From: a virus
Strand: one strand, 5' to 3'
Length of the DNA stretch: 28,245 nt
Virus genome (UHGV): UHGV-0133447
Shown here in pieces: positions 212-22,081 of the stretch. Made by a program: the position numbers and the translations under genes. Under the pieces are notes generated by a model, which saw only the letters and a list, made by a program, of their open reading frames with translations, was not told the origin of the DNA and did no database searches. How positions within the stretch are numbered: the first letter of the stretch is position 1; each line of letters opens with the position of its first letter.

Positions 212-1948
212 TCACACAATGATGGGATTACTGAAAAAGTCGTCGATATCGCCAGAATCATCCTCATAGCCTTCGGAGGCACCGATTGCCATAGCGCCCG
301 CTACAATGCCGTCGATACGCCCGGTACTTTTTTTCTTGGCAAAAATTCGGTTTTCTTTCTGATCAGCCTCCGTCACTGCTGAAGCCGCATTCCAGCGAAG
401 ACAAGGGTTCGTCCTGATGATAATGACACTGTCATCAAGCAACTCTTCAAACAATTCGATGGAGTGAGGCATCCACAGCCCGGAATCTTTCGCTTTGTAA
501 TACCCTTGCCCATGAGGGATTAACGGAACAGAAACAGATGCTTCCTCAAGCTCCGGCTCAAGATATTTAATGCGATACTGGTCGAAGGCGATGGCCTTGA
601 TATCAAACTTCTGAGTCAGATCTGCAATGCGCTGGGCAACAAAGCCGTATTTCACTGCTTTGCCAGGTGTGGTGTGGATGTGACCATCTCGCTCCCAGGC
701 GTCATAAGGTACCCGGTCCGTTTTGGCCCGTTCCAGTAACGTATCTTTCGGGGTCCAGAACTCCACCAGCAACTTACGTTGTTTTGGAAAAAACAACGCC
801 AGTGCCGTCAAATCACGCGATCCGGACAGGTCTAAACCGCCATAGCATTCCTCACCTTCCAGTTCATCTGGATCAAAGCTCTCCTCACAACCCATCCAGA
901 CATCACTGCTCATCCACGGATTAGCCGCGTCAACCCACTGACAGAAGTTAAGACGTCTGACGATGCTCTCTTTCGATGGCATCCCGCGGGCCTGAGTCAC
1001 CTGCTCACGAAGATAGCTTTCTTCAAAGGTGTGACCCAGCGAAGGGTTAGCTTTCTTCCAGCAGGACTCATCCTTGAAAGGATCGTCTCCTTCATCCAGA
1101 GAACAAATGAAGGCAAAAAAGCTGTCATCTTCTATCGAACCGGCAGAAACCTTTCGGCCGTATTCGTGATAGTCATAGCAGACACTCGTTTTATCGTGCC
1201 CACTGTTGGTGATCATGAAAATCAGCGCCTGCCGACGACCTTTGGTACCGGCACGCATCATTTCAACAACCTGATTGCTTTTATGCTCGTGAACTTCATC
1301 AATAAGAGCACAATGCGGTCGCGGGCCGGACTGCCCGTCATCTGAACTGATTGGACGAAAGAAGGAACCAGACTGAAGAAAAGCCAGGTTCCATTCCTTC
1401 CCGGCACCACCTGATTTCTGAATACGTGCGGAAAGAGCTGGAGACTGATCGACCATCGCCACCGCATCACGGAAAAGGACCATTGCCTGGTCTTTCTTCG
1501 TGGCAGCGGCATAAACTTCAGCGCGTGCTTCTTTATCCGCAGTGAGACAGTAAAGCCCTATACCCGCAGACAGAGGGGATTTACCGGATCCCTTCCCGGA
1601 CTCCACATAGACCATTCGGAACCGGCGAAAACCTCTGGCGTTTTTCCAGCCAAAAATCGAACCGACGATGAAGCACTGCCATGGCAGCAACACGAAAGGC
1701 TCGCCTTCGAAATCACCACCATTGAGCTTCAGAACTTTCGCAAAATAGTCAATCGAGCGTTGCGCCGCCTCAACATCCCAGTGCAGACCACGGGCATGAC
1801 ATGACTGCAGATCGTTGAGGTGGCGCTGGCATGAGTTACGTATGTCAGGACCAGCCAGTTCTTTGCCCGAGGTTACATCCATCGCATATTGGGTTGCTGG
1901 ATCAACCGAAGAACTTATCGAGCGTGTCCTCTTCGGGGTCTTCGCCAT
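212..1948 (-). CDS. terL: Terminase large subunit (Terminase_1 / HK97-like)
   Basis: 578-aa ORF. The N-terminus (QYAMDVTSGK...CQRHLNDL) and a Walker-A-like VESGKGSGKS are typical of this family. It lies between TerS and the portal. Confidence 0.93.
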   Translation of the reverse strand: MAKTPKRTRSISSSVDPATQYAMDVTSGKELAGPDIRNSCQRHLNDLQSCHARGLHWDVEAAQRSIDYFAKVLKLNGGDFEGEPFVLLPWQCFIVGSIFGWKNARGFRRFRMVYVESGKGSGKSPLSAGIGLYCLTADKEARAEVYAAATKKDQAMVLFRDAVAMVDQSPALSARIQKSGGAGKEWNLAFLQSGSFFRPISSDDGQSGPRPHCALIDEVHEHKSNQVVEMMRAGTKGRRQALIFMITNSGHDKTSVCYDYHEYGRKVSAGSIEDDSFFAFICSLDEGDDPFKDESCWKKANPSLGHTFEESYLREQVTQARGMPSKESIVRRLNFCQWVDAANPWMSSDVWMGCEESFDPDELEGEECYGGLDLSGSRDLTALALFFPKQRKLLVEFWTPKDTLLERAKTDRVPYDAWERDGHIHTTPGKAVKYGFVAQRIADLTQKFDIKAIAFDQYRIKYLEPELEEASVSVPLIPHGQGYYKAKDSGLWMPHSIELFEELLDDSVIIIRTNPCLRWNAASAVTEADQKENRIFAKKKSTGRIDGIVAGAMAIGASEGYEDDSGDIDDFFSNPIIV

Positions 1949-4133: not shown

Positions 4134-4329
4134 CGCTGGCCCCTTTCGTGGCTTCTGCTTTACGTTCTGCCGCGGCGACGCTGGCGGCCGCCTTCTCTTC
4201 GGTGCGCTGCCGGCTGGCTTTCGCTTCTGCTTTACTGGTGCCTCGCGCATGGCCAATGCCGAACGCGCCAGCAATAGCGCCCAGAATGACAACCACCAGC
4301 CCCGCGATAGCTTCTATTCCCATGATCAT
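4048..4329 (-). CDS. i-spanin (Rz-like), N-terminal TM helix plus a charged periplasmic segment
   Basis: 93 aa. N-terminal hydrophobic IAGLVVVILGAIAGAFGI followed by a K/E/A-rich region. ATGA overlap with the endolysin stop. Confidence 0.6.
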   Translation of the reverse strand: MIMGIEAIAGLVVVILGAIAGAFGIGHARGTSKAEAKASRQRTEEKAAASVAAAERKAEATKGASDVEESVKRMGDDDVDRELREKFTRPGGG

Positions 4330-4955
4330 CCCACCAGTACCGATTTTGCTTTCAGGAATCGGGCGCGTCGGTCATCAATGCCGTTCTGCCCGCCGTTGAT
4401 AATCTGGGTCACGCGCACTAAATCTCCGTGGTATTTCAAACATCCGTTTGAGGTGTAAAACCAGGCTGCGCTGCGGGCCGCATTAATATATTTCTCCAAC
4501 AACTCAGGGTTGCTGACTAAATCCAGTTTCAGTGCATTACCGCACTTCATATAATTTTCGAGGAAGGTGATCCCGATAATTCCACGCCCGCGGTATTTCC
4601 AGCCATCGCCCGCAGCCTTATTGCCAAAACGATTGTTGTAGACGAGATTAGCGATCGCTCGTTGACGTTCGATCGGTAAAACCTTTTCGTAAGTTTTACG
4701 CCCCAGGGTGTTCGCCTGGTCCTGCGTGATGCGCTTTGCCTTCACAAAACCAGCCAGGCCGGCAACGCTATAGTTAAAACTTTCGACCATCTGGGTAAAT
4801 GACGTGCTTTCGTGTCCACACTGCGCTATGAACATCGCCTGATCGAGTGGAGCTGTAATGCCGAATTCTTTCATCGCAGCATCAATATGCGGAAACCAGC
4901 GCGCAGCTAACCCGGCGCTGATACCAGCCGCCCTTTGAAATTGTGATTGGTTCAT
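4326..4955 (-). CDS. Endolysin, glycoside hydrolase family 19 (chitinase-like)
   Basis: 209 aa with FIAQCGHESTSF and YRGRGIIGITFLENY, which are GH19 catalytic-region motifs. Sits after the holin genes. Confidence 0.92.
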   Translation of the reverse strand: MNQSQFQRAAGISAGLAARWFPHIDAAMKEFGITAPLDQAMFIAQCGHESTSFTQMVESFNYSVAGLAGFVKAKRITQDQANTLGRKTYEKVLPIERQRAIANLVYNNRFGNKAAGDGWKYRGRGIIGITFLENYMKCGNALKLDLVSNPELLEKYINAARSAAWFYTSNGCLKYHGDLVRVTQIINGGQNGIDDRRARFLKAKSVLVG

Positions 4956-5233
4956 CAGTGCCTCAGTGCATCAACCAGTCGCGCCACATTCCCCCTGAAC
5001 CAGAGAACCGCGCCGCAGATAAGAATGTTAGCCAGCACCACCAGCCAGTGGGATGACTCGTACAGGCCAAACAGGAAACGGAAAGGGATGCTGGCATAAA
5101 CCAGCACCATGAGATAAGCCAGAACGGATATGCCCGGACGGTGTCTCGCACTACCTCGTTGGTAGAACATCAATGCCAGCACAATGACGGCGCAAATGAC
5201 TGCATTGGCCAGCGCTGAAGGATCATTTACCAC
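4955..5233 (-). CDS. Holin/antiholin-like small membrane protein
   Basis: 92 aa with about 3 hydrophobic helices and a charged C-terminus. Immediately upstream of the endolysin. Confidence 0.6.
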   Translation of the reverse strand: MVNDPSALANAVICAVIVLALMFYQRGSARHRPGISVLAYLMVLVYASIPFRFLFGLYESSHWLVVLANILICGAVLWFRGNVARLVDALRH

Positions 5234-5612
5234 TTGAACCTCCTCCCCGGAACCGGGTCAGCATATTGAACAAGCTATTTAGATCCTGGCTGTTGAGAAA
5301 CGTCAGAACTTTGATGATAAGCGCTGATATTAATACGGCTCCCAACGCATCAAGCGGACGGTCGCTGTAGCCAGTCCAGCTTGAAAGCTTGGAACCCACC
5401 AGACCGGCGCCCAGAACACCAACAATGAATGACGTCATAAAGTATGCCACCAGCTTACCGCGCGATATGTTAGCTGCCGTGGCCACGTAAAAAACCGCCC
5501 CGGCGAACGCACCAAATACCACGCCGTAATCTATTCCGGTAGCCAGACCGAACATGCTAGCCCCCATCAGGCCGCCGGCCGCAACTGAAGTACCAGAGAC
5601 AGGATCGGACAT
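5223..5612 (-). CDS. Holin-like membrane protein
   Basis: 129 aa, multi-TM and Gly/Ala-rich. GAGGGGG RBS. First gene of the lysis cassette. Confidence 0.6.
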   Translation of the reverse strand: MSDPVSGTSVAAGGLMGASMFGLATGIDYGVVFGAFAGAVFYVATAANISRGKLVAYFMTSFIVGVLGAGLVGSKLSSWTGYSDRPLDALGAVLISALIIKVLTFLNSQDLNSLFNMLTRFRGGGSSGK

Positions 5613-5671: not shown

Positions 5672-5854
5672 TGTGACAGCCACCAAAAATCACTGTAAAA
5701 ATATCAGGATTCACCACCCTCTCAGACGGATTTATTCTTCTTGTTCAGTCTCGTCCGCGTACGAAGCCAAGGATGTATCCAAGACCAAAACAAGAAAAAC
5801 CGAATCCCACCACGGGTAATACTGAATAAATAAAATCAGGCATAGGGAAATCTC

Positions 5855-6265
5855 ATGGAAATTATTTCAGTAATCGGAGTGATACTGACACTGCTAGGGC
5901 TCTTTATTCCGTCACTAATCAGTAACCATTCGTCACGTAAGGCAGAGTTCAGGAAGCATTCCGCACCACTGCTGGGAAAGTTGCTAAGCGAAATTGAGGC
6001 TATTGAAGGAGGCTCTTATCCATTCAGGCTTATCAGCGATGCTGATTTCAACCAGTTGCTACCTTACGCCCCGAGGCGCAGGAAAAACGCTCTCCTTGAT
6101 GCTTACACCAGTTATCTCGACGCTCATACGATGGCCACCACGAAGCACTGGCACGATGAACATCCATCCGATGGAATGCTATTTTTCCCGACGGGTTTCT
6201 CAGTCACTAATTCAGATGAGGTACTGAAGAAAATGCAACCTCTGAAAAAAGAACTCAGCAGATAG
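5855..6265 (+). CDS. Hypothetical N-terminally membrane-anchored protein (136 aa), opposite-strand moron
   Basis: ORF with an N-terminal TM (IISVIGVILTLLGLFIPSLI). Lies on the strand opposite to the late operon and is bracketed by the 14-bp direct repeat. Confidence 0.6.
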   Translation: MEIISVIGVILTLLGLFIPSLISNHSSRKAEFRKHSAPLLGKLLSEIEAIEGGSYPFRLISDADFNQLLPYAPRRRKNALLDAYTSYLDAHTMATTKHWHDEHPSDGMLFFPTGFSVTNSDEVLKKMQPLKKELSR

Positions 6266-6270
6266 TCCTT

Positions 6271-6284
6271 TAGGATGGCCGCCA
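6271..6284. repeat. 14-bp direct repeat TAGGATGGCCGCCA (right copy)
   Basis: Identical to 5658-5671. Starts 6 nt after the stop of the 136-aa ORF. Confidence 0.8.
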
Positions 6285-6330
6285 GATGGATTAACGACAA
6301 AGCACAGAGTGAATGATGCTCTGGTGGCAC

Positions 6331-6358
6331 AAATAAAAAAGCCATGCAAATGCATGGC
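6331..6358 (-). terminator. Rho-independent terminator (minus strand)
   Basis: GCCATGCA-AA-TGCATGGC (6341-6358). The minus-strand reading is followed by TTTTTTATTT. Confidence 0.65.
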
Positions 6359-6462
6359 CTTGTGGTTTGAATCCGTTATTTACAAAATGTATTCGAGACA
6401 GTATCTTTCGACTTCCGGACAAAAAAACATATACCGGGACAAAATCTAAATGTAACTGCCTT

Positions 6463-6493
6463 GCCTGCATGAAACCATGCGGGCTTTTTTTTT
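6463..6493 (+). terminator. Rho-independent terminator (plus strand)
   Basis: GCCTGCATG-AAAC-CATGCGGGC (one G.T pair) followed by T9 (6485-6493). Confidence 0.7.
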
Positions 6494-6495
6494 GG

Positions 6496-6522
6496 CCAAA
6501 GAAAAAGCCCACCGAAGTGGGC
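6496..6522 (-). terminator. Rho-independent terminator (minus strand), back-to-back with the plus-strand one
   Basis: Minus-strand reading is GCCCAC-TTCG-GTGGGC followed by TTTTTCTTT. Confidence 0.7.
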
Positions 6523-6549
6523 CTTACAGCTATCATCATTTTTTATTAG

Positions 6550-6662
6550 GTGTGGTGCCGGGTGCCTCCCGGTAAGTCGCCGCCAGTCCACAGACGACTC
6601 GCAATGCGCAAAAAAACATATCAGACTGGCAATGCCCCTCCGCATAGGGGGATTCACCACAC
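6550..6662. ncRNA. Cloverleaf-like multi-stem element of unknown function (strand undetermined)
   Basis: Outer stem GTGTGGTG (6550-6557) with CACCACAC (6655-6662). It encloses three nested hairpins: CCGGG-TGCCT-CCCGG, GCCAGTC...GACTGGC and CCCCT-CCGCAT-AGGGG. The ORFs on the track here look spurious. Confidence 0.35.
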
Positions 6663-6744
6663 GGATAATTTAGGATGTAGTCATAGGCGGCGTCAATAAC
6701 TGACACTCTGTCAAAGGCATCATTACGATGCCTTTTGCACAGTG

Positions 6745-6900
6745 CTAATCACTGGATCTAATAAGGGGCCAGAGCAAAGCGATTACCCCGGCTACCAGCA
6801 CGCCATCAGCCAGGATTGACATCATTTTGCTGGTGAAGTCGATAGCAACCACCAGAAACAAAAGCACCCCGGCTGCGGCCCAGCGAAGTTTACCGATCAC
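6745..6900 (-). CDS. Small two-TM membrane ORF (51 aa), translationally coupled to the TerB-domain gene
   Basis: Below the ORF-track cutoff. The GTG start overlaps the TerB stop (GTGA). Translation is (M)IGKLRWAAAGVLLFLVVAIDFTSKMMSILADGVLVAGVIALLWPLIRSSD. Hairpin at 6713-6735 downstream. Confidence 0.5.
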   Translation of the reverse strand: MIGKLRWAAAGVLLFLVVAIDFTSKMMSILADGVLVAGVIALLWPLIRSSD

Positions 6901-7322
6901 AGGTACTGGTCCAGAGGAAGTTGCAGAGCCTGGGCAATTTTCTTCAGCTGTTTCTCTTCTTCTTCCCCGATGCCGTCGTTATCAGCTACATCAAGACACA
7001 GGCAAAGAACATCGACAGCGTCATCCGTCCCGGCAACGTCAGCCAGTTCGCGCAACGCCTGAGCGTTGGCTGAACGTGGTGATGCTTCATAGCGAGCGCG
7101 AATATTCGAACTCATCTGGGCAATTTCACCAGCAAATGGCGCGAATGCCGGGAGGGCCGAAATAGTCTTCTCCAGCACTGCAATCTCTTTTGCATCGCAG
7201 GTACCATCGGCGTATGCAATCGAGTACGCTCCCCAGACCGTGGCTTCTACGGCATCGCGGTTTTCCATTTTTTTTACTTCAACAACGGCTTTACGGGCTT
7301 TCTTTTTAAAAATACCGAACAT
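6897..7322 (-). CDS. TerB-domain (tellurite-resistance TerB-like) protein
   Basis: Internal start MFGIFKKKARK... at 7322, preferred over 7403 because the upstream part is a stable hairpin. It has the TerB-like pattern AYADGTCDAKEIAVLEKTI ... LDVADNDGIGEEEEKQLKKIAQAL. Confidence 0.75.
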   Translation of the reverse strand: MFGIFKKKARKAVVEVKKMENRDAVEATVWGAYSIAYADGTCDAKEIAVLEKTISALPAFAPFAGEIAQMSSNIRARYEASPRSANAQALRELADVAGTDDAVDVLCLCLDVADNDGIGEEEEKQLKKIAQALQLPLDQYL

Positions 7323-7341
7323 AATTACGTCTCTCTTTAGT

Positions 7342-7403
7342 GGTGAGCCAACGCTCAGGGATGGTAACCACAAGGCGACGTAATACCGTCCCTCTTGGCT
7401 CAC
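7342..7403 (-). promoter_or_regulatory. Long imperfect stem-loop in the 5' leader of the TerB gene
   Basis: GGTGAGCCAA (7342-7351) pairs with TTGGCTCACC (7394-7403). An inner AGGGATGG/CCGTCCCT pairing ends about 20 nt upstream of the TerB start. Confidence 0.35.
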
Positions 7404-7453: not shown

Positions 7454-7954
7454 TTAAATAGATGAAAAATCACCATGGTACTGCCTGGAAGCAGCTACAT
7501 ACGCCCTGTGCGCTTCTTCTTTAGTGTGGAAGCGACCAAGTCGAATTTTTTTCTTTGCAATACTTATTTGCGCAATCCATTTTTTTCTATTGCGGGGGGA
7601 ATCGTTGAAATAGACCCCTTTAAGTCCAGCTGCGTTATTGCTGTGTATCCGTCGATTGCGAGTGTTCTGGTTTTGTGTGCAGAGCCTGAGATTTGTAATA
7701 CGGTTATTCAACTTGTCGCCATCAATATGATCAACAACAAGGGTTGACGGAATTTCACCGTATTTCAAGACCCAAATTATTCGGTGCACACGTATATTCT
7801 TTCCATTGAAGAATACCCTTAAATACCCAGTATCAGTCTTGACGCCAAGAGTGTCGCCAGGACTTTTACTCCCAAAAGGTGACTTGCAATAAAGGATGCC
7901 CGTAGTTTCATCGTATGAAAAAAAGTTCCTAACCGTTTCAAGAGATAGATTCAT
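7454..7954 (-). CDS. HNH homing-type endonuclease with AP2-like DNA-binding domain
   Basis: 166 aa. VDHIDGDKLNNRITNLRLCTQNQN is an HNH_3 motif. The C-terminal GVYF...KWIAQISIAKKKIRLGRFHTKEEAHRAY is AP2-like. AGGAG RBS. Confidence 0.85.
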   Translation of the reverse strand: MNLSLETVRNFFSYDETTGILYCKSPFGSKSPGDTLGVKTDTGYLRVFFNGKNIRVHRIIWVLKYGEIPSTLVVDHIDGDKLNNRITNLRLCTQNQNTRNRRIHSNNAAGLKGVYFNDSPRNRKKWIAQISIAKKKIRLGRFHTKEEAHRAYVAASRQYHGDFSSI

Positions 7955-8505: not shown

Positions 8506-8581
8506 TGGTGCTGGTTGACGGAATCGAACCGCCGACATCCTGCTTACAAGGCAGGCGCTCTACCAGCTGAGCTAAACCAGC
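8506..8581 (-). tRNA. tRNA-Thr (anticodon UGU), CCA encoded
   Basis: The reverse complement folds as a canonical cloverleaf: GCTGGTT/AACCAGC acceptor, GCTC-AGCTGGTA-GAGC D arm, CCTGC-CTTGTAA-GCAGG anticodon arm, GGCGG-TTCGATT-CCGTC T arm, and ACCA 3' end. Confidence 0.93.
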
Positions 8582-9621
8582 AAATTACGCATTTCACTGA
8601 CCGTCTGTTCAAATCTCTCGGTTTCCAGTTCGACACCTAGTCCCCTTCGCCCGAGAAGAGCAGCCTGCTTGAGCGTTGAGCCTGATCCAAAAAAGAAATC
8701 AGCTACAACATCACCCGGGCGGCTACTCGCTGTGATTATCTGCTCCAGCATATCCGCAGGCTTTTCACATGGGTGTTTACCTGGATAAAACTGAACAGGC
8801 TTATGAGTCCAGACGTCGGTATATGGCACCGTGACCGATACGCTGAATGGTCGCCGTAAACGGTAATATTCCTGCTGGAGTTCAGAATATTTTCGGCTTA
8901 ACGATTGCCAGGTGCCGACAAGCTGGTGGTGAGGTTTTCCCAGTTCGTTGCGTGAGTGCTTATCCATGGCGATTGTTTGAAACAAAGCCTGCAACTTTAA
9001 ATAATCGGCTTCGTTCGGTAGCTGCCACTGACTAAGGCCAAACCAGTGGGAAACCATATTTTTCTTACCTGTGGCTTCTGCAATCTGAGCCGACGTCACG
9101 CCAAGAGATTCCCGTGCATCACGGAAGTAAGAAATTAAAGGCGTCATGACGTGTTGCTTTAACTCATTACACTTTGCGGCATATCCATCGTCTTTGGGCC
9201 TGTATGGCCCCTGATAATGGTCGGCAAAAATGATACGCTCAGTGGCCGGGAAATAAGCGCGTAAGCTCTCCTTATTGCAGCCGTTCCATCGCCCTGATGG
9301 CTTAGCCCAGATGATATGGTTGAGCAGGTTAAACCGCTCTCTCACCAACAGCTCAATATCCGCTGCCAGGCGGTGCCCACAGAACAGATACATGCTGCCG
9401 GCAGGTTTTAACACTCGCCAGAACTGTGCCAGACAGCTATCCAGCCAACGTAAATAGTCTTCGTCCCCCTTCCATTGGTTATCCCAGCCGTTTGGCTTCA
9501 CCTTAAAATAAGGCGGATCGGTAACAATAAGATCAATGGAGTTATCGGGTAGCGATGGGAGGTATTGCAGGCAATCAGCATTGATTAACTCAATACTGGA
9601 TATTTTTACAGTATTTTTCAT
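8572..9621 (-). CDS. DNA methyltransferase, beta-class N6A/N4C (DPPY motif)
   Basis: 349 aa. Motif IV IVTDPPYF is near the N-terminus and motif I DFFFGSGST near the C-terminus, which is the beta-class order. The target base cannot be told from sequence by eye. Confidence 0.9.
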   Translation of the reverse strand: MKNTVKISSIELINADCLQYLPSLPDNSIDLIVTDPPYFKVKPNGWDNQWKGDEDYLRWLDSCLAQFWRVLKPAGSMYLFCGHRLAADIELLVRERFNLLNHIIWAKPSGRWNGCNKESLRAYFPATERIIFADHYQGPYRPKDDGYAAKCNELKQHVMTPLISYFRDARESLGVTSAQIAEATGKKNMVSHWFGLSQWQLPNEADYLKLQALFQTIAMDKHSRNELGKPHHQLVGTWQSLSRKYSELQQEYYRLRRPFSVSVTVPYTDVWTHKPVQFYPGKHPCEKPADMLEQIITASSRPGDVVADFFFGSGSTLKQAALLGRRGLGVELETERFEQTVSEMRNLLV

Positions 9622-9770: not shown

Positions 9771-9992
9771 TTACTGGAGGCGCTTATAACATCCGAACTG
9801 ATAATCAGATAACCCCGCCATTACCAGCTGCGTAAGTATGAGCTGGCAGCGTTCGCGGCTCAGGTGAGTATTCTGAGCAATCTCCCCAGCCGTAGCCGGT
9901 TTGTCACTTAACTCATCAAAAACAGCCTTGGCTGTTTCCGTCATATCTTGCTGATTTAGCATGTCTTTTATCTCAAATAAGTGGTGTGACAT
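9771..9992 (-). CDS. Small hypothetical protein with wHTH-like segment, first ORF after the late promoter
   Basis: The track ORF 9771..10022 starts at a TTG. The ATG at 9992 (MSHHLFEIKD...) is more plausible. No family recognised. Confidence 0.5.
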   Translation of the reverse strand: MSHHLFEIKDMLNQQDMTETAKAVFDELSDKPATAGEIAQNTHLSRERCQLILTQLVMAGLSDYQFGCYKRLQ

Positions 9993-10063
9993 ACAGATAA
10001 CTCTGGTGACGGTATCCAGCAAGAACTAATTGAAAGAGAAGAAGATTTTATCGATTTTATCCC

Positions 10064-10172: not shown

Positions 10173-11003
10173 TTATGCGATATTTATCAAATCAGGCACC
10201 TTTGTCACACGTTTAAGCTGTGAGTCGGTATAACTCTCTTCCTCAAAGCATCTTGTAACCAGACTTTCATAGAAAGGTTTCCAGCTATATCGCCAGGTAC
10301 GTTCTGGCAGACCAGGCAGCTCAGAGAGCATACCCCTGTATGCATTCGAAGACTTAGGACGACTATAACCGCGGCCTTCACAACGTTTACACACTTTGTA
10401 GACAGGCACTCCCTGCAGCTCTGACTCTTTACGGTCCAGGGTTTTTCCCGTACCGCCACACTGGCATCGCTTGCTGATTTTCCCGGTGCCGCCACATTTG
10501 AAGCAAAGAACATGGTCAACCTCTTCCACCTGACGTTTTACTTCAAAATCCGAAGGTGACTGCCTGAGGTCTTTTGCCCATTGCGGTAATCTCATTGTGT
10601 AGTGGCTTTTTTCCACCATTGAGGTTTTTTTTATGAAGCCTGAACCAGAACACTTCCTGCAATCTACGCTGTCAGCTGCAGACGAGGCATAGTCGTTATA
10701 AGCGAACCGAGCTATTATCAGCATACACAGCGGGAACTTCTTCCCTGCTGCTTTTCTTATCGATCGAGGCGCTTTTGATTTTGCATATTCAGCCAACCAA
10801 CTGACGGATGCCTTTCTGTCGTGTTCGCTGATTCCAGCTTTACCCAAAAACATTGACAGGCCTATTCCTGCCTCTGCCTGTGTCATCCCCAGAGCCGCCA
10901 TTACATCTGTCACAGTAAGTTGCTCGCTGGCGGTTGCAAGACCGCTATCGGAAATATGCATTCCTTTGGGCGCAAAAAATTTGGGAATTGATTCAATATT
11001 CAT
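10173..11003 (-). CDS. Antitermination protein Q-like (Qin/QuuQ-type, with DnaJ-like CxxCxGxG zinc-finger repeats)
   Basis: MNIESIPKFFAPKG... N-terminus. Contains CRKCSGSG, CFKCGGTG, CQCGGTG and CKRCEGRG repeats. The ATG at 11003 has GGAG 8 nt upstream, whereas the track start at 11021 is a GTG. Sits upstream of the PR'/tR'-like elements. Confidence 0.7.
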   Translation of the reverse strand: MNIESIPKFFAPKGMHISDSGLATASEQLTVTDVMAALGMTQAEAGIGLSMFLGKAGISEHDRKASVSWLAEYAKSKAPRSIRKAAGKKFPLCMLIIARFAYNDYASSAADSVDCRKCSGSGFIKKTSMVEKSHYTMRLPQWAKDLRQSPSDFEVKRQVEEVDHVLCFKCGGTGKISKRCQCGGTGKTLDRKESELQGVPVYKVCKRCEGRGYSRPKSSNAYRGMLSELPGLPERTWRYSWKPFYESLVTRCFEEESYTDSQLKRVTKVPDLINIA

Positions 11004-11021
11004 GCTCAGTACTCCATACAC

Positions 11022-12619: not shown

Positions 12620-13450
12620 TTACTGCGTGACAACGCCAATGAGCTTTAAAAGCTCAGGAAATTTCGATTCGAAGAAGTGCGGTTGCGTCTCACGTGGATT
12701 TGCCGGGCTGGTGATGTTTTTACCGTACAGACAACCTTTTGCCGTAACAGACCAGAATCTTTTCACGCCATTGATACCCGTTCGGCTGCGGCGCTCCTTC
12801 TGCTCGACTATGCCGTGACCAGCCATAAGGTGATAAGCCTGGTTCGCGGTCATTCTGATGTTGTTAGCTTTAAGCAAAGCGCTAAGAGACAGCGTTGGTC
12901 TGCTGGAACCATCCTGCGCGCCAGCTGGTGCATCAATGGCATATGAAGGCATTAAATCAGGCAGCCCTGCTACCTGCTGAAGCTTCTGATATGCCCCGAG
13001 CTTTGACGAATTAGAGAGATTGAGCATTTTGGATGCAGATTCCAGGAGGATTATGCCAGCCTGAATGCGATCGGTATTGACGGTTGCAGCCCCAGCAGTG
13101 TGGAGCGCGTCAAACGTTCTGATGACCTTCAGATTAAAAACAGCGCTGATCCACATCGCGTAGGCATACACCAACTCACGGCAAACATAGGTACCTTGCT
13201 CATTTCCGCCGCGGATGACACTTACAGGTTCTGAAATATCCGAGTTGCTATTTTGCAACTCGCCTATCAATTGCGCAGTTTGTTCGTTACGGAGCCAGAA
13301 TGCAGGCTTATGGCGGTCAAGGGAGCCGGAAGCACGATGGAGATCGTTTAGGCAATAACGACCAAGGACATCACGACGAACAGAAATACCATCAATAACA
13401 AAAAAAGTGTGATTATTGGATGCAGCAGCACCCATGACGTGGTTAGTCAT
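12620..13450 (-). CDS. KilA-N domain protein / antirepressor-like
   Basis: FFVIDGISVRRDVLGRYCLNDLHRASG...KPAFWLRNEQT matches the KilA-N pattern. The ATG at 13450 has GGAG 8 nt upstream. The alternative ATG is at 13462. Confidence 0.8.
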   Translation of the reverse strand: MTNHVMGAAASNNHTFFVIDGISVRRDVLGRYCLNDLHRASGSLDRHKPAFWLRNEQTAQLIGELQNSNSDISEPVSVIRGGNEQGTYVCRELVYAYAMWISAVFNLKVIRTFDALHTAGAATVNTDRIQAGIILLESASKMLNLSNSSKLGAYQKLQQVAGLPDLMPSYAIDAPAGAQDGSSRPTLSLSALLKANNIRMTANQAYHLMAGHGIVEQKERRSRTGINGVKRFWSVTAKGCLYGKNITSPANPRETQPHFFESKFPELLKLIGVVTQ

Positions 13451-13538
13451 AGCTTTCTCCATACATTTTTATGTGACGAAGGGCCTGCACGCCCGTTTCG
13501 TTTGCACCCTTTGAGATTACTGGCAAGTTGCATAGACT

Positions 13539-13937
13539 TCAACCTACCACTGAACAAACATCCAGCGTTTTTTTATACGCCGATATGGTGATTTCTACCC
13601 GCCCGCCTTTAACATTCTCACCCCACTCTATAGCCATGCGCTTTACCTGGTTGTCGTCCTCCCAGATACCGGCATAAGTCAAAGCATCAAGAAGTGCCTT
13701 GTTGTAATTGTCCAGGTCACGCCGGCGATAGTCTGGCGGATAGAGAATAATTTCTACAGCTGCTGGCGCGGTAGATGGTTTTGGTATTGCACGCAGTTGC
13801 TCAATGATCGCTGAACGTACTGCATGTTTGAATTTACGGCCGGCTGCGCTGACAAGGTGTTTACCTTTTGCGGGCCCCTTATTTGGGGACCGCCAGTAGG
13901 TGTTCACGCTGGGTGGGAATGGAAGAATAAATTTCAT
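13539..13937 (-). CDS. rusA: Holliday junction resolvase RusA
   Basis: 132 aa. MKFILPFPPSVNTYWR... and DLDNYNKALLDALTYAGIWEDDNQV are canonical RusA motifs. Confidence 0.92.
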   Translation of the reverse strand: MKFILPFPPSVNTYWRSPNKGPAKGKHLVSAAGRKFKHAVRSAIIEQLRAIPKPSTAPAAVEIILYPPDYRRRDLDNYNKALLDALTYAGIWEDDNQVKRMAIEWGENVKGGRVEITISAYKKTLDVCSVVG

Positions 13938-14410
13938 TCTGCCTCCAGCACTATTTTCAACTCAAACGGAACATCTCCTCCGCAATAGCAGAGCGGGCCA
14001 AGGTCAGACATGAGGCTCCACAGGGTCATTGACGTATAGCCATTTTCGTCTGTTATCGGGGGCGAAAAGTCTCCGAAGATCGCCGGGTGCTGGATTCGAT
14101 TCTCTTCGTGCTGGCTTCTCAAGTAACTTAGAGCTTCGGCAGTAAGTTTCACTTTTACGATGCTGTTGAGATTGACCGATATTTCTCTGGCCAACAGCGA
14201 AGAGGTGATACTGATACCGCGAGAAACCCCGCGGGTAATCTTGATGGCCCCTTTTCTCTCCAGCGCCTTGAGGTGCGTTGCTGCTGCATTGGGGGACCGG
14301 CACCCCAGCATGCCGGTCAGTTCGTAAGTTGTAGGCGGAAAACCATGTTTACGCTGATATTCGATCAGGAGGTCAAGGACCTCCTGCTGCCTTAAGGTCA
14401 AGGAAGTCAT
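13934..14410 (-). CDS. LexA-type DNA-binding-domain protein lacking the S24 peptidase domain
   Basis: MTSLTLRQQEVLDLLIEYQRKHGFPPTTYELTGMLGCRSPNAAATHLKALERKGAIKITRGVSRGI resembles the LexA N-terminal wHTH. The roughly 85-aa C-terminus is unrelated to S24. ATGA overlap with the C5-MTase stop. Confidence 0.7.
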   Translation of the reverse strand: MTSLTLRQQEVLDLLIEYQRKHGFPPTTYELTGMLGCRSPNAAATHLKALERKGAIKITRGVSRGISITSSLLAREISVNLNSIVKVKLTAEALSYLRSQHEENRIQHPAIFGDFSPPITDENGYTSMTLWSLMSDLGPLCYCGGDVPFELKIVLEAE

Positions 14411-16389
14411 GCTGCCTGCTCCTCTCTGTTCACGCACATTTCGGGTAAGTTGGCGCGTACCAGCGCTTCGGCGAACGGCGGCGGGACGGCATTGCCACAG
14501 CGCGCGACCTGCTTATCTTTCGCGTATTTCACGCCGCGGTAATCCTGGTCAATGATGTACCACTCCGGAAAGCCCTGCGCCCGATAGAGCTCGTGCGGCT
14601 GCAGCATGCGCATGCCGATATCAACGATGCGGTAAGTCACTCCGCCGATTTCCACCAGCCCGGTGCATTCCTCTCCGCAGTATTCCTGCAGGAACGACAG
14701 CACCTGCTGCGCTCGCTCTTCGTCATAGTCCTCGACCGCCAGAGTCGTTTTAACCTCCCCTACATGCTGGCCACCGGCAGTGATAGTCGGCATCGGCTCG
14801 TCAGTTCGCTGGCCATCGCGGCAGGTTCCGCGCAGCTTAACCAGATGAGAAGCGACTAATGCATGGTGATCGACAGTCGTTACTGAATGCGCTGGCTCAT
14901 CCAGCCCCACGCCAGCGCCCTGATAATTCCCTCCGTAGTGTTTTGCCAGGAACGCACCAACTACAGCATGTTTCCCGCCACCAGCCACAACGGTGCCCAG
15001 CGGCTTATCCAGTCCTGGCACGCGAGGTGCCTGTCCTGGCCGTTCCCCGTATCCCATTTGAATGAGCGTCGGCACAACCAGCTGCGATTTACCTCCGCCG
15101 CCCGCGGTGATTGTTGCGCTAGGCTCATCCGCCCGGTGTCCGATGCTGGCGCCGAACTGCCGGGCGATAACCGGAGCGACGACACAGGCGCGCGATTCTT
15201 TCAGGATGGTGTGAGCGGGTTTATCGAGCGGGCGTGGTTTAGCCTGGTACTCGCTGCCGCCATTGCCAGCCAGGAACGGCGCCAGCTCTGCTTCAACAAT
15301 ACCCAGAGCGTGACCATTCCCGCCCGGGCGTTTTGCGGTACCGGCCGTCACCGTCGGCAACGGATCGGTGACTTCCTGCCCGGTAGCTCCAGTTCGGAAT
15401 TTTGTCAGATGAGGTACCGCAATTGCGTAGCCGTGGGTTTTCGTAATCGTCTGTAGCGGATCGTCCAGCGCCTGTCCCCGGAAACAGTCGTATTTGCCGC
15501 GTGTCGTTGTGTGATTGCACTTCACGATGAACGGCGAAGCGCTTTCGATAACAAAGCGCTGAATGCCGCGGGCAATCCGTTTTAGCGTATTCTCTGCCAG
15601 TGACTTTTTGCGACCGAAGATGCTCGGCGCGGGGATTGACCAGTCTATGCATTCCGCAGCTGTACGCCACGGCTCAAGCTGGCCCGCCAGCACGGCGGCA
15701 GACTTCGGATCCCCGTGCGTGGCTTCCGGCCAGACTATCAGTTTCCCGTCCCGGCGCATCACCATGAAGAACCGCTTACGGATGGTCGGCGCGCCATAAT
15801 CGCAGGCGCGCAGCTCGCGAAAATCGACGACATAACCCAGCCCGGCAATTAAGCGCTTGGCCTGCTCGCTATCCGGTGAAAACTCCAGAAACTCGCAACA
15901 CTCCACCAGTGCAGGATGATCTGCTGGAATACCGGTGGTAAGCATCCCGACAAATGCATTGAAAGTTTCACCGATGCGTGCCGGATCCGGTCGCATTTCT
16001 GCCGCGAGTAACGGACCCCACGTCTTAAACTCTTCGACGTTTTCCAGCATCATGACTCGCGGGCCAACATCCAGCGCCCAACGAATGACGATCCATGCCA
16101 GCCCTCGAATAGCTTTCTCTACTGGTTTAGCACCTTTCGCTTTAGAAAAGTGACGACAGTCAGGCGAGAACCATGCCAGGCCGACAGGCTTGCTACTGGT
16201 AGCGGCTAATGGGGATACATCAAACACACTTTCGCAATAGTGAAGCGTGTCGGGATGGTTAGTGCGGTGCATAGCAACGGCGTTAACATCGTGGTTAATA
16301 GCGATATCAACACTGCGCCCTATTGCCAGTTCAATACCTGTACTGGCTCCACCGCCGCCAGCGAAATTATCGACAATAATCTCACGCAT
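14407..16389 (-). CDS. DNA (cytosine-5) methyltransferase with greatly expanded, internally repeated target-recognition region
   Basis: Motif I DNFAGGGGAS, IV SPDCRHFS, VI MLENV, VIII TIRKRFF, IX LQPHELYRAQGFP and X GNAVPPP. About 375 aa lie between VIII and IX and contain about 7 D-[EDK]-P-x(2,3)-T-[IV] repeats. Confidence 0.92.
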   Translation of the reverse strand: MREIIVDNFAGGGGASTGIELAIGRSVDIAINHDVNAVAMHRTNHPDTLHYCESVFDVSPLAATSSKPVGLAWFSPDCRHFSKAKGAKPVEKAIRGLAWIVIRWALDVGPRVMMLENVEEFKTWGPLLAAEMRPDPARIGETFNAFVGMLTTGIPADHPALVECCEFLEFSPDSEQAKRLIAGLGYVVDFRELRACDYGAPTIRKRFFMVMRRDGKLIVWPEATHGDPKSAAVLAGQLEPWRTAAECIDWSIPAPSIFGRKKSLAENTLKRIARGIQRFVIESASPFIVKCNHTTTRGKYDCFRGQALDDPLQTITKTHGYAIAVPHLTKFRTGATGQEVTDPLPTVTAGTAKRPGGNGHALGIVEAELAPFLAGNGGSEYQAKPRPLDKPAHTILKESRACVVAPVIARQFGASIGHRADEPSATITAGGGGKSQLVVPTLIQMGYGERPGQAPRVPGLDKPLGTVVAGGGKHAVVGAFLAKHYGGNYQGAGVGLDEPAHSVTTVDHHALVASHLVKLRGTCRDGQRTDEPMPTITAGGQHVGEVKTTLAVEDYDEERAQQVLSFLQEYCGEECTGLVEIGGVTYRIVDIGMRMLQPHELYRAQGFPEWYIIDQDYRGVKYAKDKQVARCGNAVPPPFAEALVRANLPEMCVNREEQAA

Positions 16390-17335
16390 GAGCGGTCCCC
16401 CTCATGCTGCCGACCAGCCCACCAGCAACGGTGATGATTTCGCTGGTGGGCACGCGCTCCAGCCACAACTGGTTAATGTGGGCCTTCAGCTTGTTCTGCT
16501 GGGAGAACTCCAGATCCTCTGCGCCTTGTACCTGTCCAAAGACGAGTCCAACTTCCAGTGGCCAGATCCGGGATTCAGGCTCAGCCAATGATGCAACAGC
16601 ATCGGGGATGATCACTTCAGGAGACTGAACTGGCGAAACTGGTGACAGGAATTTTCCTGCAGCAAACTCAGCCAGCGCCATACTTGCGCGCCCTTTTGCT
16701 TCCAGCTCAACGCGATCGATATAGCTAAAATGTTCACCGCGCCAGGTCTTATCAAATACCGCAATGGCCCCGGCAAAGAATGCGCTGGTGGGCTTCTGCT
16801 TTTCGTCGGCCGGCACAAACCACGTTGGGAGATCGAATCCAATACGACCACGAATAAACATGATGTGATCGGCATATTCCGGCCACCATGTTTCACTTGT
16901 TGCTGACTTCACGAGGTAAATGTAACGACCACCCTTTTCACGCTGCTCGGCGGTATAGTTCATAATATGAGTCATGCCAGTGATGGCTTGTTTTTCATGG
17001 TACTGCGAACGGCTATACGGCGGATTAGCAAAGGCCGCTCCTCCGAGTTCTACCAAACGACCAGACCAGTCCTGCGTCAGCGCATTATCTTCAGCGGTAT
17101 ACCATGCCGGACATTTTGTATTGCTGTCGTCTGCAAACAGGTCCAGTACCAGCGGGCCAAACATAGCGTTAACGCCCCAGAACAGCAGATCAGGGGTACG
17201 CCATTGATCCCCGACTTCTTTTAAATAATGCGCACTACGCTGGCGCTGTTCCTCAAGTGCCAGGCAATAAGGGCTGACGGTTTTTGTTAAAGTTTGCTCT
17301 TCTGCGGTCATAGCTTCTTGTACTTCCTGACTCAT
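16382..17335 (-). CDS. Phage-type DNA N6-adenine methyltransferase (Dam, PF05869-like) with C-terminal extension
   Basis: WRTPDLLFWGVNAMFGPLVLDLFAD...FANPPYSRS matches the phage Dam family pattern as I recall it. Overlaps both neighbours. Confidence 0.85.
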   Translation of the reverse strand: MSQEVQEAMTAEEQTLTKTVSPYCLALEEQRQRSAHYLKEVGDQWRTPDLLFWGVNAMFGPLVLDLFADDSNTKCPAWYTAEDNALTQDWSGRLVELGGAAFANPPYSRSQYHEKQAITGMTHIMNYTAEQREKGGRYIYLVKSATSETWWPEYADHIMFIRGRIGFDLPTWFVPADEKQKPTSAFFAGAIAVFDKTWRGEHFSYIDRVELEAKGRASMALAEFAAGKFLSPVSPVQSPEVIIPDAVASLAEPESRIWPLEVGLVFGQVQGAEDLEFSQQNKLKAHINQLWLERVPTSEIITVAGGLVGSMRGTAHA

Positions 17336-17526
17336 AGTTTTCCCCTGCGCTGATCAGCATCAACAAGTGCTCTCAGTAACCAGTAACGGCGATCAAAGCT
17401 GAAAAGGTCATTTCTGAGGAGTGCATATTTTCTGCGAAAAATAACGTCGTGCTGCCACCAGTAACGCCAGTGATGCAAACGCATAAGGCGCCGGAGACTT
17501 ATCAAAATCTTCTTCAATCGGAGCAC
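17332..17526 (-). CDS. Small basic W/R-rich ORF (uncertain)
   Basis: Fills the gap between two genes and has an ATGA overlap with the Dam start. The start codon is uncertain (GTG at 17526 or ATG at 17484). Composition is unusual. Confidence 0.4.
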   Translation of the reverse strand: MLRLKKILISLRRLMRLHHWRYWWQHDVIFRRKYALLRNDLFSFDRRYWLLRALVDADQRRGKL

Positions 17527-17972
17527 AAGTCACCTCCGCAGTAATTTCCGGCCAGATAGCATGACCCGGCGGAATCATTCATGTTTCTGGCGTTTCGAAC
17601 AGAAGCATTCTTAAGACGCAGGTATCGCTCTCTTGCTTTAGCCGTACAGTTGCTGTCACAAAGTTGCTGCCATACCGTCGCCGCACGGCGGTAATAGCGT
17701 TTCTCTTCCAGCTTTTTGGCTGTCGCTTCAAGGGCGAGAATCTCCCCCGAAAGCCCACCTGGCAGGTACTCTTCAATATCAATGGATCCCGCTACGAAGT
17801 AGATAAACCCACCAGTAACTTCAACGCTGGCAAGTTCCCCGTCGTAGTAAAGGCGATGAACAGCGCTCTTCACTGTTACCGGTTTGGTTTCAGGAAATGC
17901 CGCAGTGATATCGCGCAGCATTTTGCCTGGATTCTTCTCAATAAATTCAAAGATCGACTTGGCTATGTTCAT
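17514..17972 (-). CDS. wHTH protein with PerC-like C-terminal motif
   Basis: 152 aa. LEEKRYYRRAATVWQQL resembles the PerC-family signature as I remember it. ATGA overlap with the replication gene. Confidence 0.5.
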   Translation of the reverse strand: MNIAKSIFEFIEKNPGKMLRDITAAFPETKPVTVKSAVHRLYYDGELASVEVTGGFIYFVAGSIDIEEYLPGGLSGEILALEATAKKLEEKRYYRRAATVWQQLCDSNCTAKARERYLRLKNASVRNARNMNDSAGSCYLAGNYCGGDLCSD

Positions 17973-18880
17973 CCCCGGAACCCCCGTGGAATCGTGGTTT
18001 GTACTGGACTAATTGAATTAACATCCCGCGGTCTGGTTTTGTCCCACGACTCCCTTGGCGGGCGGCCTTTAGCATCCCAGCGGATGGCGCTTTGCAGATA
18101 TCCCTCGAATTTTTTAGGGCCGAAAAGTGTCTCGGGTCGCATGTACTGGTATTGCTCGTCGTTGCCATGCCAGTGCTCATGCTTGACGTCGATTACCAGA
18201 TTCAAGTCGCTAACGGTATGACCTTCGCGGAGGCGGGCGCGAATGTTCTCCAGTGAGGTCTTAGATTTCTGGTAACGGGAACCGCTGACCAGATTCAGGT
18301 GTGCCAGAACTTCGATCGCGTTATCGGTAATAACAACTTCAGGATCCGGCTTATCGTCGGGTTCCGCAGGAGCCCGACAAGAAGGTTTTTTAGATGACGG
18401 ATCTAATGACGGATCTAATGACGGATCGCCTTCAACCATTGAGGGGTCCTCCCGCAATATTTGAGGGGGTACAGACCCATTATTTGAGGCATCAGAATTT
18501 GACCCCTCAAATTTTGAACCCTCAAATTCTGAGGCATCAAATTTTGATTGTTCACGTGGCGTTGCGTAGAAGATTTTTGCTTCAGCTGCTGCACGTTCAA
18601 GCATGTCCACATTGAGTTTATAAACGTTCGAATTATTCTTTCCACCCACGCGCCGTTCCTGCTTCTTCAGCCAGCCTTTAGCCTGAAGCTTTTTGATAGC
18701 GCTGCGGACAGTATTCTCGCTCTTGGCGCCGATCTGTCGCTGAATAGTGGTTACCGCTGGCCATGACACACCTTCGTCATTACTGAAATCTGCCAGGCGA
18801 GCCATGACCGCTATTTCTGAGATTATCAGCCCTTTGAAAGCGCATGCTTCCCATACGAGGCCGTGTAATTTACTGCTCAT
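17969..18880 (-). CDS. Replication initiation protein (lambda O-like role; N-terminal HTH, C-terminal phage conserved domain)
   Basis: 303 aa with an N-terminal wHTH (VSWPAVTTIQRQIGAKSENTVRSAIKKLQAKGWL). It has internal iteron-encoded repeats and a C-terminal LNLVSGSRYQKSKTSLENIRARL...RPETLFGPKKFEGYL domain typical of phage initiators. Confidence 0.8.
   Translation of the reverse strand: MSSKLHGLVWEACAFKGLIISEIAVMARLADFSNDEGVSWPAVTTIQRQIGAKSENTVRSAIKKLQAKGWLKKQERRVGGKNNSNVYKLNVDMLERAAAEAKIFYATPREQSKFDASEFEGSKFEGSNSDASNNGSVPPQILREDPSMVEGDPSLDPSLDPSSKKPSCRAPAEPDDKPDPEVVITDNAIEVLAHLNLVSGSRYQKSKTSLENIRARLREGHTVSDLNLVIDVKHEHWHGNDEQYQYMRPETLFGPKKFEGYLQSAIRWDAKGRPPRESWDKTRPRDVNSISPVQTTIPRGFRG
18394..18560. 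repeat. Origin-like iteron cluster inside the replication gene
   Basis: ATGACGGATCTA occurs 2.8 times (18394-18429). This is followed by TTGAGGGG/TTTGAGG motifs and inverted CCCCTCAAAT/CCCTCAAAT copies (18436-18545), which resemble lambda ori iteron cores (TCCCTCAAA). An AT-rich tract follows. Confidence 0.6.
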
Positions 18881-19049
18881 GGCTGCCCTCTACTTCCCTG
18901 AACTTGCGTTGAAACTGATCGAGTGGGCTAAAGCACTCGTGGGAATAGCCTTCCCGCAGGTAGATGACGCGACGTGTCTCAGGCTCCCAGCGGATAACTC
19001 TGACTGGATTGCCATAGTGGTCTTTGAACTTCCGGTTAACTTCTCGCAT
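18870..19049 (-). CDS. DUF4222-like small protein (59 aa; below the ORF-track cutoff)
   Basis: My translation is MREVNRKFKDHYGNPVRVIRWEPETRRVIYLREGYSHECFSPLDQFQRKFREVEGSHEQ. GGAGGG lies upstream. It overlaps the replication gene start by 11 nt and is far more protein-like than the overlapping 115-aa frame. Confidence 0.6.
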   Translation of the reverse strand: MREVNRKFKDHYGNPVRVIRWEPETRRVIYLREGYSHECFSPLDQFQRKFREVEGSHEQ

Positions 19050-19221
19050 AACGCTTTTGCCCTCCGGTTAAAGACCCCCACAACTCCGCGTGCCCGACTG
19101 TGGTTACACTCGACCCATTTACCGCATACCATGCGCTCATACCGAAACGACGAAACGCCCGGGATCGGGTACATCCGTAGTTGCGGTAATTGAAGATTTA
19201 CGATTAAATTGCTCATGCGGA

Positions 19222-19773
19222 TTATTTCTCCATACACAAAGATTTATTCGCCACGACGCCCGGAGCTGCACACTCGCGGGCGTCACTCTTTTCTGGCTGA
19301 CAAAAGACACGGAACAGTAACGTTAAATGTTCCTGCCATTTCGCCATCACCTGATAGCTGTTCTCCTCAATTTGCTCGCGTTCTGCCTGGTCAATTACCC
19401 CATCAGCTGTAGCTTTACGCAGGTACTGCGAGTGTTTTCCTATCCACTCAATGGACTCCATAAGACGCTGGTTAATATCTGCGTTGTCCACGTCTTCAAT
19501 ATCTGCCAACGGAACAAAAACGCCGTTCGAGTGACGCGCTATAGCATTGGCAATATGATTTGACCCACCAGCACGCTGCAGCACCATTGCCCAGCCGAGA
19601 GGGAAAATCTGATCACCATCGGCACGTAAACGGTTAAACAATGCGTTTTCAGTAACGCCCAGCCACTCCGCAGCTTCCACGTAACCACCGTCCAGTTCGG
19701 TGATAGTCTTTTTAATCGCGGCCACCAGCCACGCCGGTTGCTTCTCTACTTTCCATTCAGGTTCTATACCCAC
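19222..19773 (-). CDS. CII-like regulatory protein (CP76/YdaT-type)
   Basis: 183 aa with a GTG start and AGGAGG 7 nt upstream. HTH-like AAEWLGVTENALFNRLR. Sits directly after the cro-like gene. Confidence 0.7.
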   Translation of the reverse strand: MGIEPEWKVEKQPAWLVAAIKKTITELDGGYVEAAEWLGVTENALFNRLRADGDQIFPLGWAMVLQRAGGSNHIANAIARHSNGVFVPLADIEDVDNADINQRLMESIEWIGKHSQYLRKATADGVIDQAEREQIEENSYQVMAKWQEHLTLLFRVFCQPEKSDARECAAPGVVANKSLCMEK

Positions 19774-21903: not shown

Positions 21904-21924
21904 AGTGCTCTTACCGTTGTGGTG
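21904..21924 (+). repeat. 21-nt boxA-like motif, copy 1 (AGTGCTCTTACCGTTGTGGTG)
   Basis: Contains TGCTCTTA (compare lambda nut boxA CGCTCTTA and rrn boxA TGCTCTTTAACAA), followed by GT-rich GTTGTGGTG, which is also the 5' acceptor-like strand of module 1. Confidence 0.6.
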
Positions 21925-22042: not shown

Positions 22043-22081
22043 GCGCACAACGATGAGGGCATTGACGAGCAAGGCACAGAG

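Follow-up and report, generated by a model that had tools for sequence, protein, structure and literature searches.

An STnc100-family small RNA gene and a probable convergent partner upstream of the lysis genes of a lambdoid prophage related to Klebsiella phages

The UHGV virus genome UHGV-0133447 was analysed as a stretch of 28,245 nucleotides (nt), referred to here as the window, which on the strength of its sequence is in its entirety a lambdoid prophage; the closest database phage matches to the region described below are all Klebsiella phages. Between the stop codons of an open reading frame (ORF) at 5855-6265 (plus strand) and a gene at 6745-6900 (minus strand) lies a gene-poor stretch (6266-6744), which we consider likely to be the Klebsiella-prophage form of a known arrangement, namely an STnc100 small RNA (sRNA) gene and a convergent short RNA located upstream of the lysis genes. 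In eight Sakai prophages, convergent pairs of Hfq-bound sRNAs were reported at the site where morons are inserted, 3' of PR' (Tree 2014, PMC4104026), and a review terms such pairs "dyads" and calls the reason for the arrangement unclear (PMC7873438). A first-pass annotation of the window, made from the letters alone, had drawn attention to terminators, a candidate sRNA and a cloverleaf-like element at 6285-6744, and all of the features that it listed are present, within about 3 nt of where it had placed them.

The minus-strand gene was identified using cmscan against Rfam, a check proposed by the first-pass annotation. Across the whole window, the sole strong non-tRNA match is STnc100 (RF02076) at 6691-6494 on the minus strand, which scores 100.7 bits where the gathering score is 47 (E 4e-21), and it covers the full model (positions 1-206). 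The sequence at 6550-6662, previously described as a cloverleaf, is by this match the core of a catalogued sRNA encoded on the minus strand. In the alignment to the RF02076 consensus, the closing stem, the hairpins, and the 6525-6504 terminator (minus strand) are all matched, so that the cloverleaf and this terminator form one gene; the elements themselves were read correctly, and only their treatment as separate entities fails, both being parts of STnc100. The idea that convergent terminators mark sRNA genes is borne out here, and the terminator that had been placed at 6496-6522 belongs to STnc100. The family match spans 6494-6691, and the likely transcript is predicted to start at about 6660 and to end at about 6497, a length of roughly 160 nt. 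A tRNA or tmRNA identity for 6550-6662 was rejected, as ARAGORN finds only a tRNA-Thr at 8506-8581, and the Rfam tRNA model matches 8509-8581 and 21918-22043, not 6550-6662.

Folding of 6550-6662 gives, on either strand, an 8-bp closing stem round several hairpins, as had been proposed, with energies of -47.8 kcal/mol (z -2.8) for the minus strand and -41.9 kcal/mol (z -2.8) for the plus strand. Read on the minus strand, the core (6550-6662) comprises the closing stem (6662-6655 / 6557-6550, 8 bp), hairpin 1 (6652-6634), a variable region (about 6633-6600), hairpin 3 (about 6600-6575), and an invariant hairpin, CCGGGAGGCACCCGG (6572-6558). Relatives were retrieved from IMG/VR using the invariant 20-mer CCGGGAGGCACCCGGCACCA, resulting in 126 distinct sequences that were reduced to 46 diverse representatives and aligned; because retrieval relied on this 20-nt motif, the invariance of helix 5 and of part of helix 1 is built into the sample. 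RNAalifold on the 46 relatives recovers the closing stem, hairpin 1, a hairpin of variable sequence, and the invariant hairpin. The stems are supported by the conservation and covariation analysis that the first-pass annotation had suggested: 96.1% of cells are paired, 10 of 23 pairs have changed on both sides (in 74 cells), none of 500 shuffles reaches any of the five measures used, and sliding the partners by 1-3 columns lowers pairing to 45-56%. Conserved U-G/G-U pairs (45/46 and 27/46 sequences) would mismatch on the other strand, which assigns the core to the minus strand. The STnc100 of the window is a closed multi-hairpin core with invariant sequence at its ends and a variable middle, followed by an A/U-rich linker and its terminator, T1.

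STnc100 has a conserved sigma-70 promoter of its own on the minus strand (6667-6696; -35 TTGACG 6696-6691, 18-nt spacer, -10 TAAATT 6672-6667), a point absent from the first-pass annotation, and a start near 6660 is predicted from it. Among the relatives, the sequences upstream of GGUGAAUCC are mutually unrelated, yet they carry TTGAC/TTGAA, a spacing of 16-18 nt, and a TAAATT-like hexamer at a fixed offset, measured from GGTGAAT. A strict promoter scan was positive for 50 of 113 distinct upstream sequences, with the -10 end at a single position, and for 0 of the shuffled controls. Within the closing stem, covariation begins with the pair at 6660 (G-C in 29 sequences, A-U in 14), which fits a start near this position. 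T1, the intrinsic terminator of STnc100 (6495-6525, minus strand), is formed by a stem-loop at 6525-6504 (9 pairs) and a U-rich tail, and aligns to the terminal hairpin of the RF02076 model. The gene is located in the prophage late region, with cargo genes upstream of it and the lysis genes downstream. Its interpretation as a short late transcript of the PR'-tR' type (lambda 6S, StxS) was rejected, given that it lies about 3.5 kb beyond the end of Q (10173), with a small ORF, a methylase, tRNA-Thr, and three further genes in between. In E. coli, EcOnc27/sRNA103 was recovered Hfq-bound and is visible as an sRNA on northern blots (PMC7873438), and by analogy the STnc100 of the window may be a discrete Hfq-associated RNA. 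STnc100 also occurs in tandem, with four Rfam hits within 1.1 kb at one related locus (L010, 2265-3380) and two flanking a tRNA at another (L173, 976-2100).

Five terminator-like sites were found between 5800 and 7300 versus 1.9 +/- 1.7 in shuffles, with three strong ones within 200 nt, and the three intrinsic terminators reported earlier were recovered at 6463-6493 (plus strand), 6525-6504 (minus strand), and 6361-6338 (minus strand). The last of these, T2 (6328-6361), is a second late-strand terminator with a 10-pair stem-loop (6361-6338) followed by UUUUUUAUUU, and it forms the left edge of a conserved cassette. Cassette edges were determined using blastn of 6000-7000 against all fetched loci, taking the homology block that contains 6400; in 108 viral contigs this block starts at about 6330 (92/108 loci) and ends at about 6660-6670 (91/108), with a median identity of 98.5%. 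The block edges define a unit of about 340 bp, extending from T2 to the -10 and start of STnc100 and having mosaic flanks, and on this sequence comparison the cassette moves as a unit. A genome scan located it in K. grimontii, K. michiganensis, and a Raoultella species; a single unrelated match in a Nitrosopumilales metagenome-assembled genome was rejected as chance. Searched with blastn in distant mode, phages and E. coli genomes yielded, outside Klebsiella, only the conserved STnc100 ends. A 377-bp contig labelled Halomonas elongata (NZ_JAJQTQ010000128.1, coverage 0.73) is near-identical to the cassette and is most likely assembly contamination. The order T2, convergent terminator, STnc100 terminator is common to the E. 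coli-type loci L096 and L113; in L113 (IMG/VR), an Rfam AgvB match at 966-1027 (plus strand) abuts, back to back, STnc100 at 1028-1222 (minus strand). Altogether, a convergent terminator occurs within 200 nt in 68 of 151 distinct STnc100 loci.

The candidate convergent sRNA is placed at 6414-6493 on the plus strand, in the anti-sRNA slot of the arrangement, with a length of about 50-80 nt and an uncertain 5' end, which the relatives are too uniform to place. A promoter-like site (6379-6407; TTTACA 6379-84, 17-nt spacer, TATCTT 6402-07) predicts a start near 6414, and the RNA would consist of a 5' hairpin (6414-6418 / 6434-6438) whose A-rich loop has 15 nt, an A/U-rich single strand (6439-6462), and the terminator returned by the terminator scan (9 pairs at 6463-6484, followed by T9/U9 at 6485-6493). 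The predicted fold has an energy of -21 kcal/mol (z -3.1). The T9 terminator is specific to the plus strand, given the U-G pair of its stem and its plus-side T-run, and its pattern is present in 108 IMG/VR contigs with almost invariant neighbouring sequence. A plus-strand ORF lies to the left of this terminator in only 14 of 109 related loci; in most of the 109, an opposite-strand holin gene follows directly, as in Klebsiella phage ST974-OXA48phi18.2. At the other 95 loci, no transcript is obvious that T9 could end, save one born inside the cassette. The candidate shares with E. coli-type partners a CCUUGCC motif leading into the terminator stem and a long U tail. The earlier proposal of a plus-strand RNA of about 80 nt ending at T9 is reasonable in that E. 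coli prophages have AgvB or AsxR in this slot, and is weakened by its promoter; we consider that the candidate is probably a real sRNA, which would be a new sequence family in a known slot.

Several results weigh against this assignment. The sigma70-like site is present as described but matches the consensus at only 9 of 12 positions, and the scan of 5800-7300 found 3 promoter-like sites versus 1.9 +/- 1.4 expected; with no enrichment, the match alone proves nothing. Neither hexamer varies among 47 distinct relatives, which is not significant (about 2 hits expected), and the cassette is too uniform (about 98.5% identity) for covariation to reach the promoter or the 5' hairpin. Neither 5700-7000 nor a 136-nt query (6365-6500) matched AgvB or AsxR, even at E <= 10, and the relaxed Rfam hits to these queries (Leu_leader at 27.9 bits on the minus strand, L10_leader at 22.6 bits, MicC, CyaR, and others) were rejected as chance, being sub-threshold and terminator-driven. 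An nhmmer search with 6331-6462 against 227 loci returned near-identical copies only and no diverged relatives, and a model built from 11 E. coli-type partners gave as its best hit in the window a weak match at 6434-6491 (plus strand; 13.9 bits, E 0.28). Nor is a partner obligatory, since 83 of the 151 distinct STnc100 loci have no convergent terminator by the criteria used. An insulating role for the terminators is something that we infer.

STnc100 could be the only RNA gene here, with T9 and T2 acting as insulators that block stray transcription, in either direction, between the cargo genes and the lysis cassette, and no stable plus-strand sRNA being made. T9 would then also end the mRNA of ORF 5855-6265, which lies upstream on the plus strand and whose nearest hairpin (6341-6358) is a poor plus-strand terminator; a promoter at background level, the lack of an Rfam match for 6365-6500, and the 83 loci without a convergent terminator fit this explanation as well. 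Against it stand the 95 loci that have no plus-strand ORF to the left of T9 and the roughly 100 nt between T2 and T9, which are conserved as well as STnc100 itself; moreover, AgvB and AsxR, which fill the slot in E. coli prophages, are primary transcripts mapped by experiment. We regard insulation without a plus-strand sRNA as somewhat unlikely, and a short RNA facing STnc100 remains the preferred reading. Small proteins are a further alternative, as ORFs of 46-94 amino acids exist on both strands and the GenBank record of Klebsiella phage ST974-OXA48phi18.2 (MK448237.1) annotates two hypothetical proteins, QBP28630.1 and QBP28629.1, over the homologous cassette. However, the ORFs at 6291-6539, 6376-6660, and 6367-6549 overlap one another and span a curated RNA family and homopolymer runs whose length varies among relatives; they have no Pfam match at E <= 1 save one at chance level, and the conservation is accounted for by base-pair covariation. 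A-run and T-run length variants among near-identical relatives break every frame, and with the lack of Pfam hits this makes the region non-coding and the ORFs spurious, in agreement with the first-pass description of it as ORF-poor. A protein-coding function is extremely improbable, and the two annotated stretches of MK448237.1 (2882-3259 and 3322-3462) are probably mis-annotations. The core might, lastly, be a cis-acting element of the late transcript or mimic a tRNA instead of being a base-pairing sRNA, and would then provide a scaffold for protein or enzyme binding (e.g. a processing site, or a ligand of RNA polymerase or the ribosome). Its layout invites the comparison (a closing stem of 6-8 bp and two unpaired bases lead to an arm, after which come a variable region and a 5-bp arm directly entering the 3' strand of the closing stem), its loop sequences are invariant in the 46 relatives beyond what pairing demands, and the late transcript necessarily carries the element in lytic growth. 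Yet neither ARAGORN nor the Rfam tRNA and tmRNA models call it, its own conserved promoter and terminator indicate that it is made as a separate RNA, and the E. coli member is Hfq-bound and seen on northern blots as an sRNA; a role in cis or as a mimic is very unlikely.

The two RNAs may also be connected to each other. The first-pass annotation had noted a repeated 12-mer, AAAAAAACATAT, which occurs exactly twice in the window (6421-32 and 6610-21), a number reached in 0 of 100 shuffles; the shared word in fact extends to a 13-mer, CAAAAAAACATAT, at 6420-32 and 6609-21, both on the plus strand. As the two genes are on opposite strands, their RNAs are complementary loop to loop over 13 nt, which the first-pass annotation did not mention: CAAAAAAACAUAU in the loop of the candidate hairpin (6420-6432, plus strand) is complementary to AUAUGUUUUUUUG in the unpaired variable loop of STnc100 (6609-6621, minus strand). 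One RNA could thereby titrate or destabilise the other. A complementary run of at least 13 nt appeared in 7 of 20,000 dinucleotide shuffles (P about 3.5e-4, in a test made after the repeat was noticed), the run joins loops in both predicted folds, and perfect complementarity is kept in 59 of 103 related loci. On the other side, the homopolymers of the two loops differ in length independently of each other (6/7, 8/7, 7/6), single substitutions are uncompensated, with no compensatory changes between the loops found in the 103 loci, and the duplex is A/U-rich and weak. A gapped analysis showed the window-type STnc100 loop in 86 of the 103 loci, and in the other 17 the plus-strand unit is joined to STnc100 variants offering only 7-8 nt of complementarity. 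Complementarity of partners as a general property of dyads was rejected, as E. coli-type pairs are at background (5-6 nt), and neither RNA has further complementarity of at least 11 nt to the rest of the window save the trivial antisense strand. The independent run lengths, uncompensated changes, 17 divergent loci, and E. coli-type background make mutual pairing a lead rather than a finding. We hold mutual regulation in general to be unlikely, and the more specific case of a self-regulating pair in the Klebsiella/Raoultella lineage, whose plus-strand anti-sRNA would target the neighbouring STnc100 through a 13-nt loop kiss, to be distinctly unlikely; if true, it would offer a reason for the joint travel of both RNAs as one cassette.

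Taking STnc100 and a convergent short RNA as the working arrangement, the promoter at 6696-6667 would drive an RNA of about 160 nt on the late-gene strand, and a short RNA (about 50-80 nt) from the plus-strand promoter (6379-6407) would stop at T9 with its 3' end facing that of STnc100; T2 (6361-6338) would close the cassette on the late strand. In a lysogen, by analogy, both RNAs may use Hfq to act in trans on transcripts of the host or the phage. With the holin and endolysin genes in the path of a constitutive promoter, termination is necessary in the lysogen, and readthrough from the STnc100 promoter into these genes would be prevented by T1, T2, and the opposing transcription unit. Q-modified polymerase ignores intrinsic terminators, and during lytic growth such polymerase from the late promoter would traverse the whole region and yield a late transcript antisense to the partner RNA. 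The plus-strand RNA, dependence on Hfq, insulation, and any targets are parts of this scheme that we infer, whereas the three-terminator layout on which it is drawn is observed.

The late region is arranged on the minus strand in the order Q, methylase, tRNA-Thr, HNH, TerB-like, TciB-like, dyad, holins, and glycoside hydrolase family 19 (GH19) endolysin. The Q antiterminator (10173-11021) is followed by a small ORF (9771-10022), the methylase (8572-9621), and a tRNA-Thr (UGU) called by ARAGORN (8506-8581) between the Q/methylase genes and the morons, a place in which related Klebsiella and E. coli-type loci carry this tRNA too. The HNH-AP2 gene (7454-7954), the TerB-like gene (6897-7403), and the TciB-like gene (6745-6900) precede the dyad (about 6330-6700), beyond which are the holins (4955-5612), the GH19 endolysin (4326-4955), and the terminase (212-2366). 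ORF 5855-6265 (plus strand) encodes 136 amino acids, hydrophobic at the N-terminus, for which neither Pfam nor PHROG has a match. Running antisense to the late operon, it is an insertion that separates the sRNA cassette from the holin genes; a homologue is present in only 14 of 109 related loci, which gives it the look of a recent moron. RusA, KilA-N, methylases, replication genes, and CII are located at 12620-19773, and a CI-type repressor at 20106-20780. Adjoining the repressor gene in the early-left region is a tRNA-like sequence (21918-22043, plus strand) that scores 40 bits with the Rfam tRNA model (threshold 29) and is not called by ARAGORN; its acceptor, D, and T arms are intact, about 68 additional bases follow the anticodon arm, and an additional T-arm-like motif, GGTTCGATTCC, is present downstream (22075-22100). 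The early-left operon also contains, at 24638-26499 (plus strand) and adjoining DUF2303, genes for a ParB-helix-turn-helix protein and a DndB-like protein (PF14072, E 6e-43), which may be linked to DNA modification or anti-defence.

The main element is already catalogued and the architecture already published, and this is no new kind of system. The novelty lies in the host range, in a new RNA for the anti-sRNA slot, in how the cassette is delimited, and in the complementarity between dyad members. To our knowledge, pathogenic E. coli is the only setting from which a lysis-adjacent dyad of Hfq-bound sRNAs has been described to date, and a Klebsiella paper using RIL-seq does not mention a prophage dyad. 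The present data extend the arrangement beyond Escherichia, to more than 100 viral contigs and to K. grimontii, K. michiganensis, and Raoultella genomes. The plus-strand candidate is a concrete, unannotated putative regulator for Klebsiella lysogens, and assigning the region as non-coding corrects hypothetical-protein annotations in deposited phage genomes.

Compared with known systems, the minus-strand gene belongs to STnc100 (RF02076), the family whose Rfam annotation overlaps EcOnc27/sRNA103 (PMC12711010) of E. coli O157 and which is related to PasD of enteropathogenic E. coli. It resembles STnc100/EcOnc27 in its full-length model match, its closing stem, the invariant motifs UGGUGAAUCCCCC...GGGGC and ACCGGGAGGCACCCGGCACCA, its own promoter and terminator, and its placement on the late strand after morons and before lysis genes; it differs in a host range of Klebsiella/Raoultella rather than Escherichia, Shigella, and Salmonella, in its U-rich central region, and in upstream cargo that is TerB/TciB-like and not stx2 as in E. 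coli, where EcOnc02 (AsxR) and EcOnc27 are found as a pair downstream of stx2B (PMC4104026). Lambda 6S and StxS are likewise short, terminated late-strand RNAs of lambdoid phages that Q-modified polymerase reads through, but they start at PR' right after Q and carry the Q-utilisation site, whereas Q is about 3.5 kb and six genes upstream of STnc100, which has its own promoter. AgvB acts against GcvB and AsxR against FnrS, so that host regulation is rewired. Both are dyad members of 51-60 nt that act as sponges of core sRNAs (PMC4104026). The plus-strand candidate is like AgvB (RF02702) and AsxR (RF02703) in being short, with a long U tail and the CCUUGCC motif running into the terminator stem, in its slot between a moron coding sequence and the lysis genes, and in being convergent with STnc100, terminator to terminator (T9 at 6463-6493 facing T1 at 6525-6504), with T2 beyond. 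Unlike them, it matches neither Rfam model nor the conserved 3' region of about 42 nt, would measure about 80 nt from its predicted promoter, and has a predicted 5' hairpin, and it is without a CACAACA (GcvB-mimic) motif. At E. coli-type loci, namely L096 (1430-1498, plus strand) and about 12 others, the convergent slot is taken by another well-conserved family, with GCUGAAAUAUUACUUCACGUUUUGUUGUUUAUUCCUUGCC followed by a terminator; it matches no Rfam family at threshold and may correspond to PasA/PasC. Overall architecture and genomic position are shared between the window and the dyads of Sakai prophages Sp3, 4, 5, 9, 10, 11, 15, and 17, to which the window adds a shared three-terminator layout, a cassette of about 340 bp with sharp mosaic edges, and 13 nt of complementarity.

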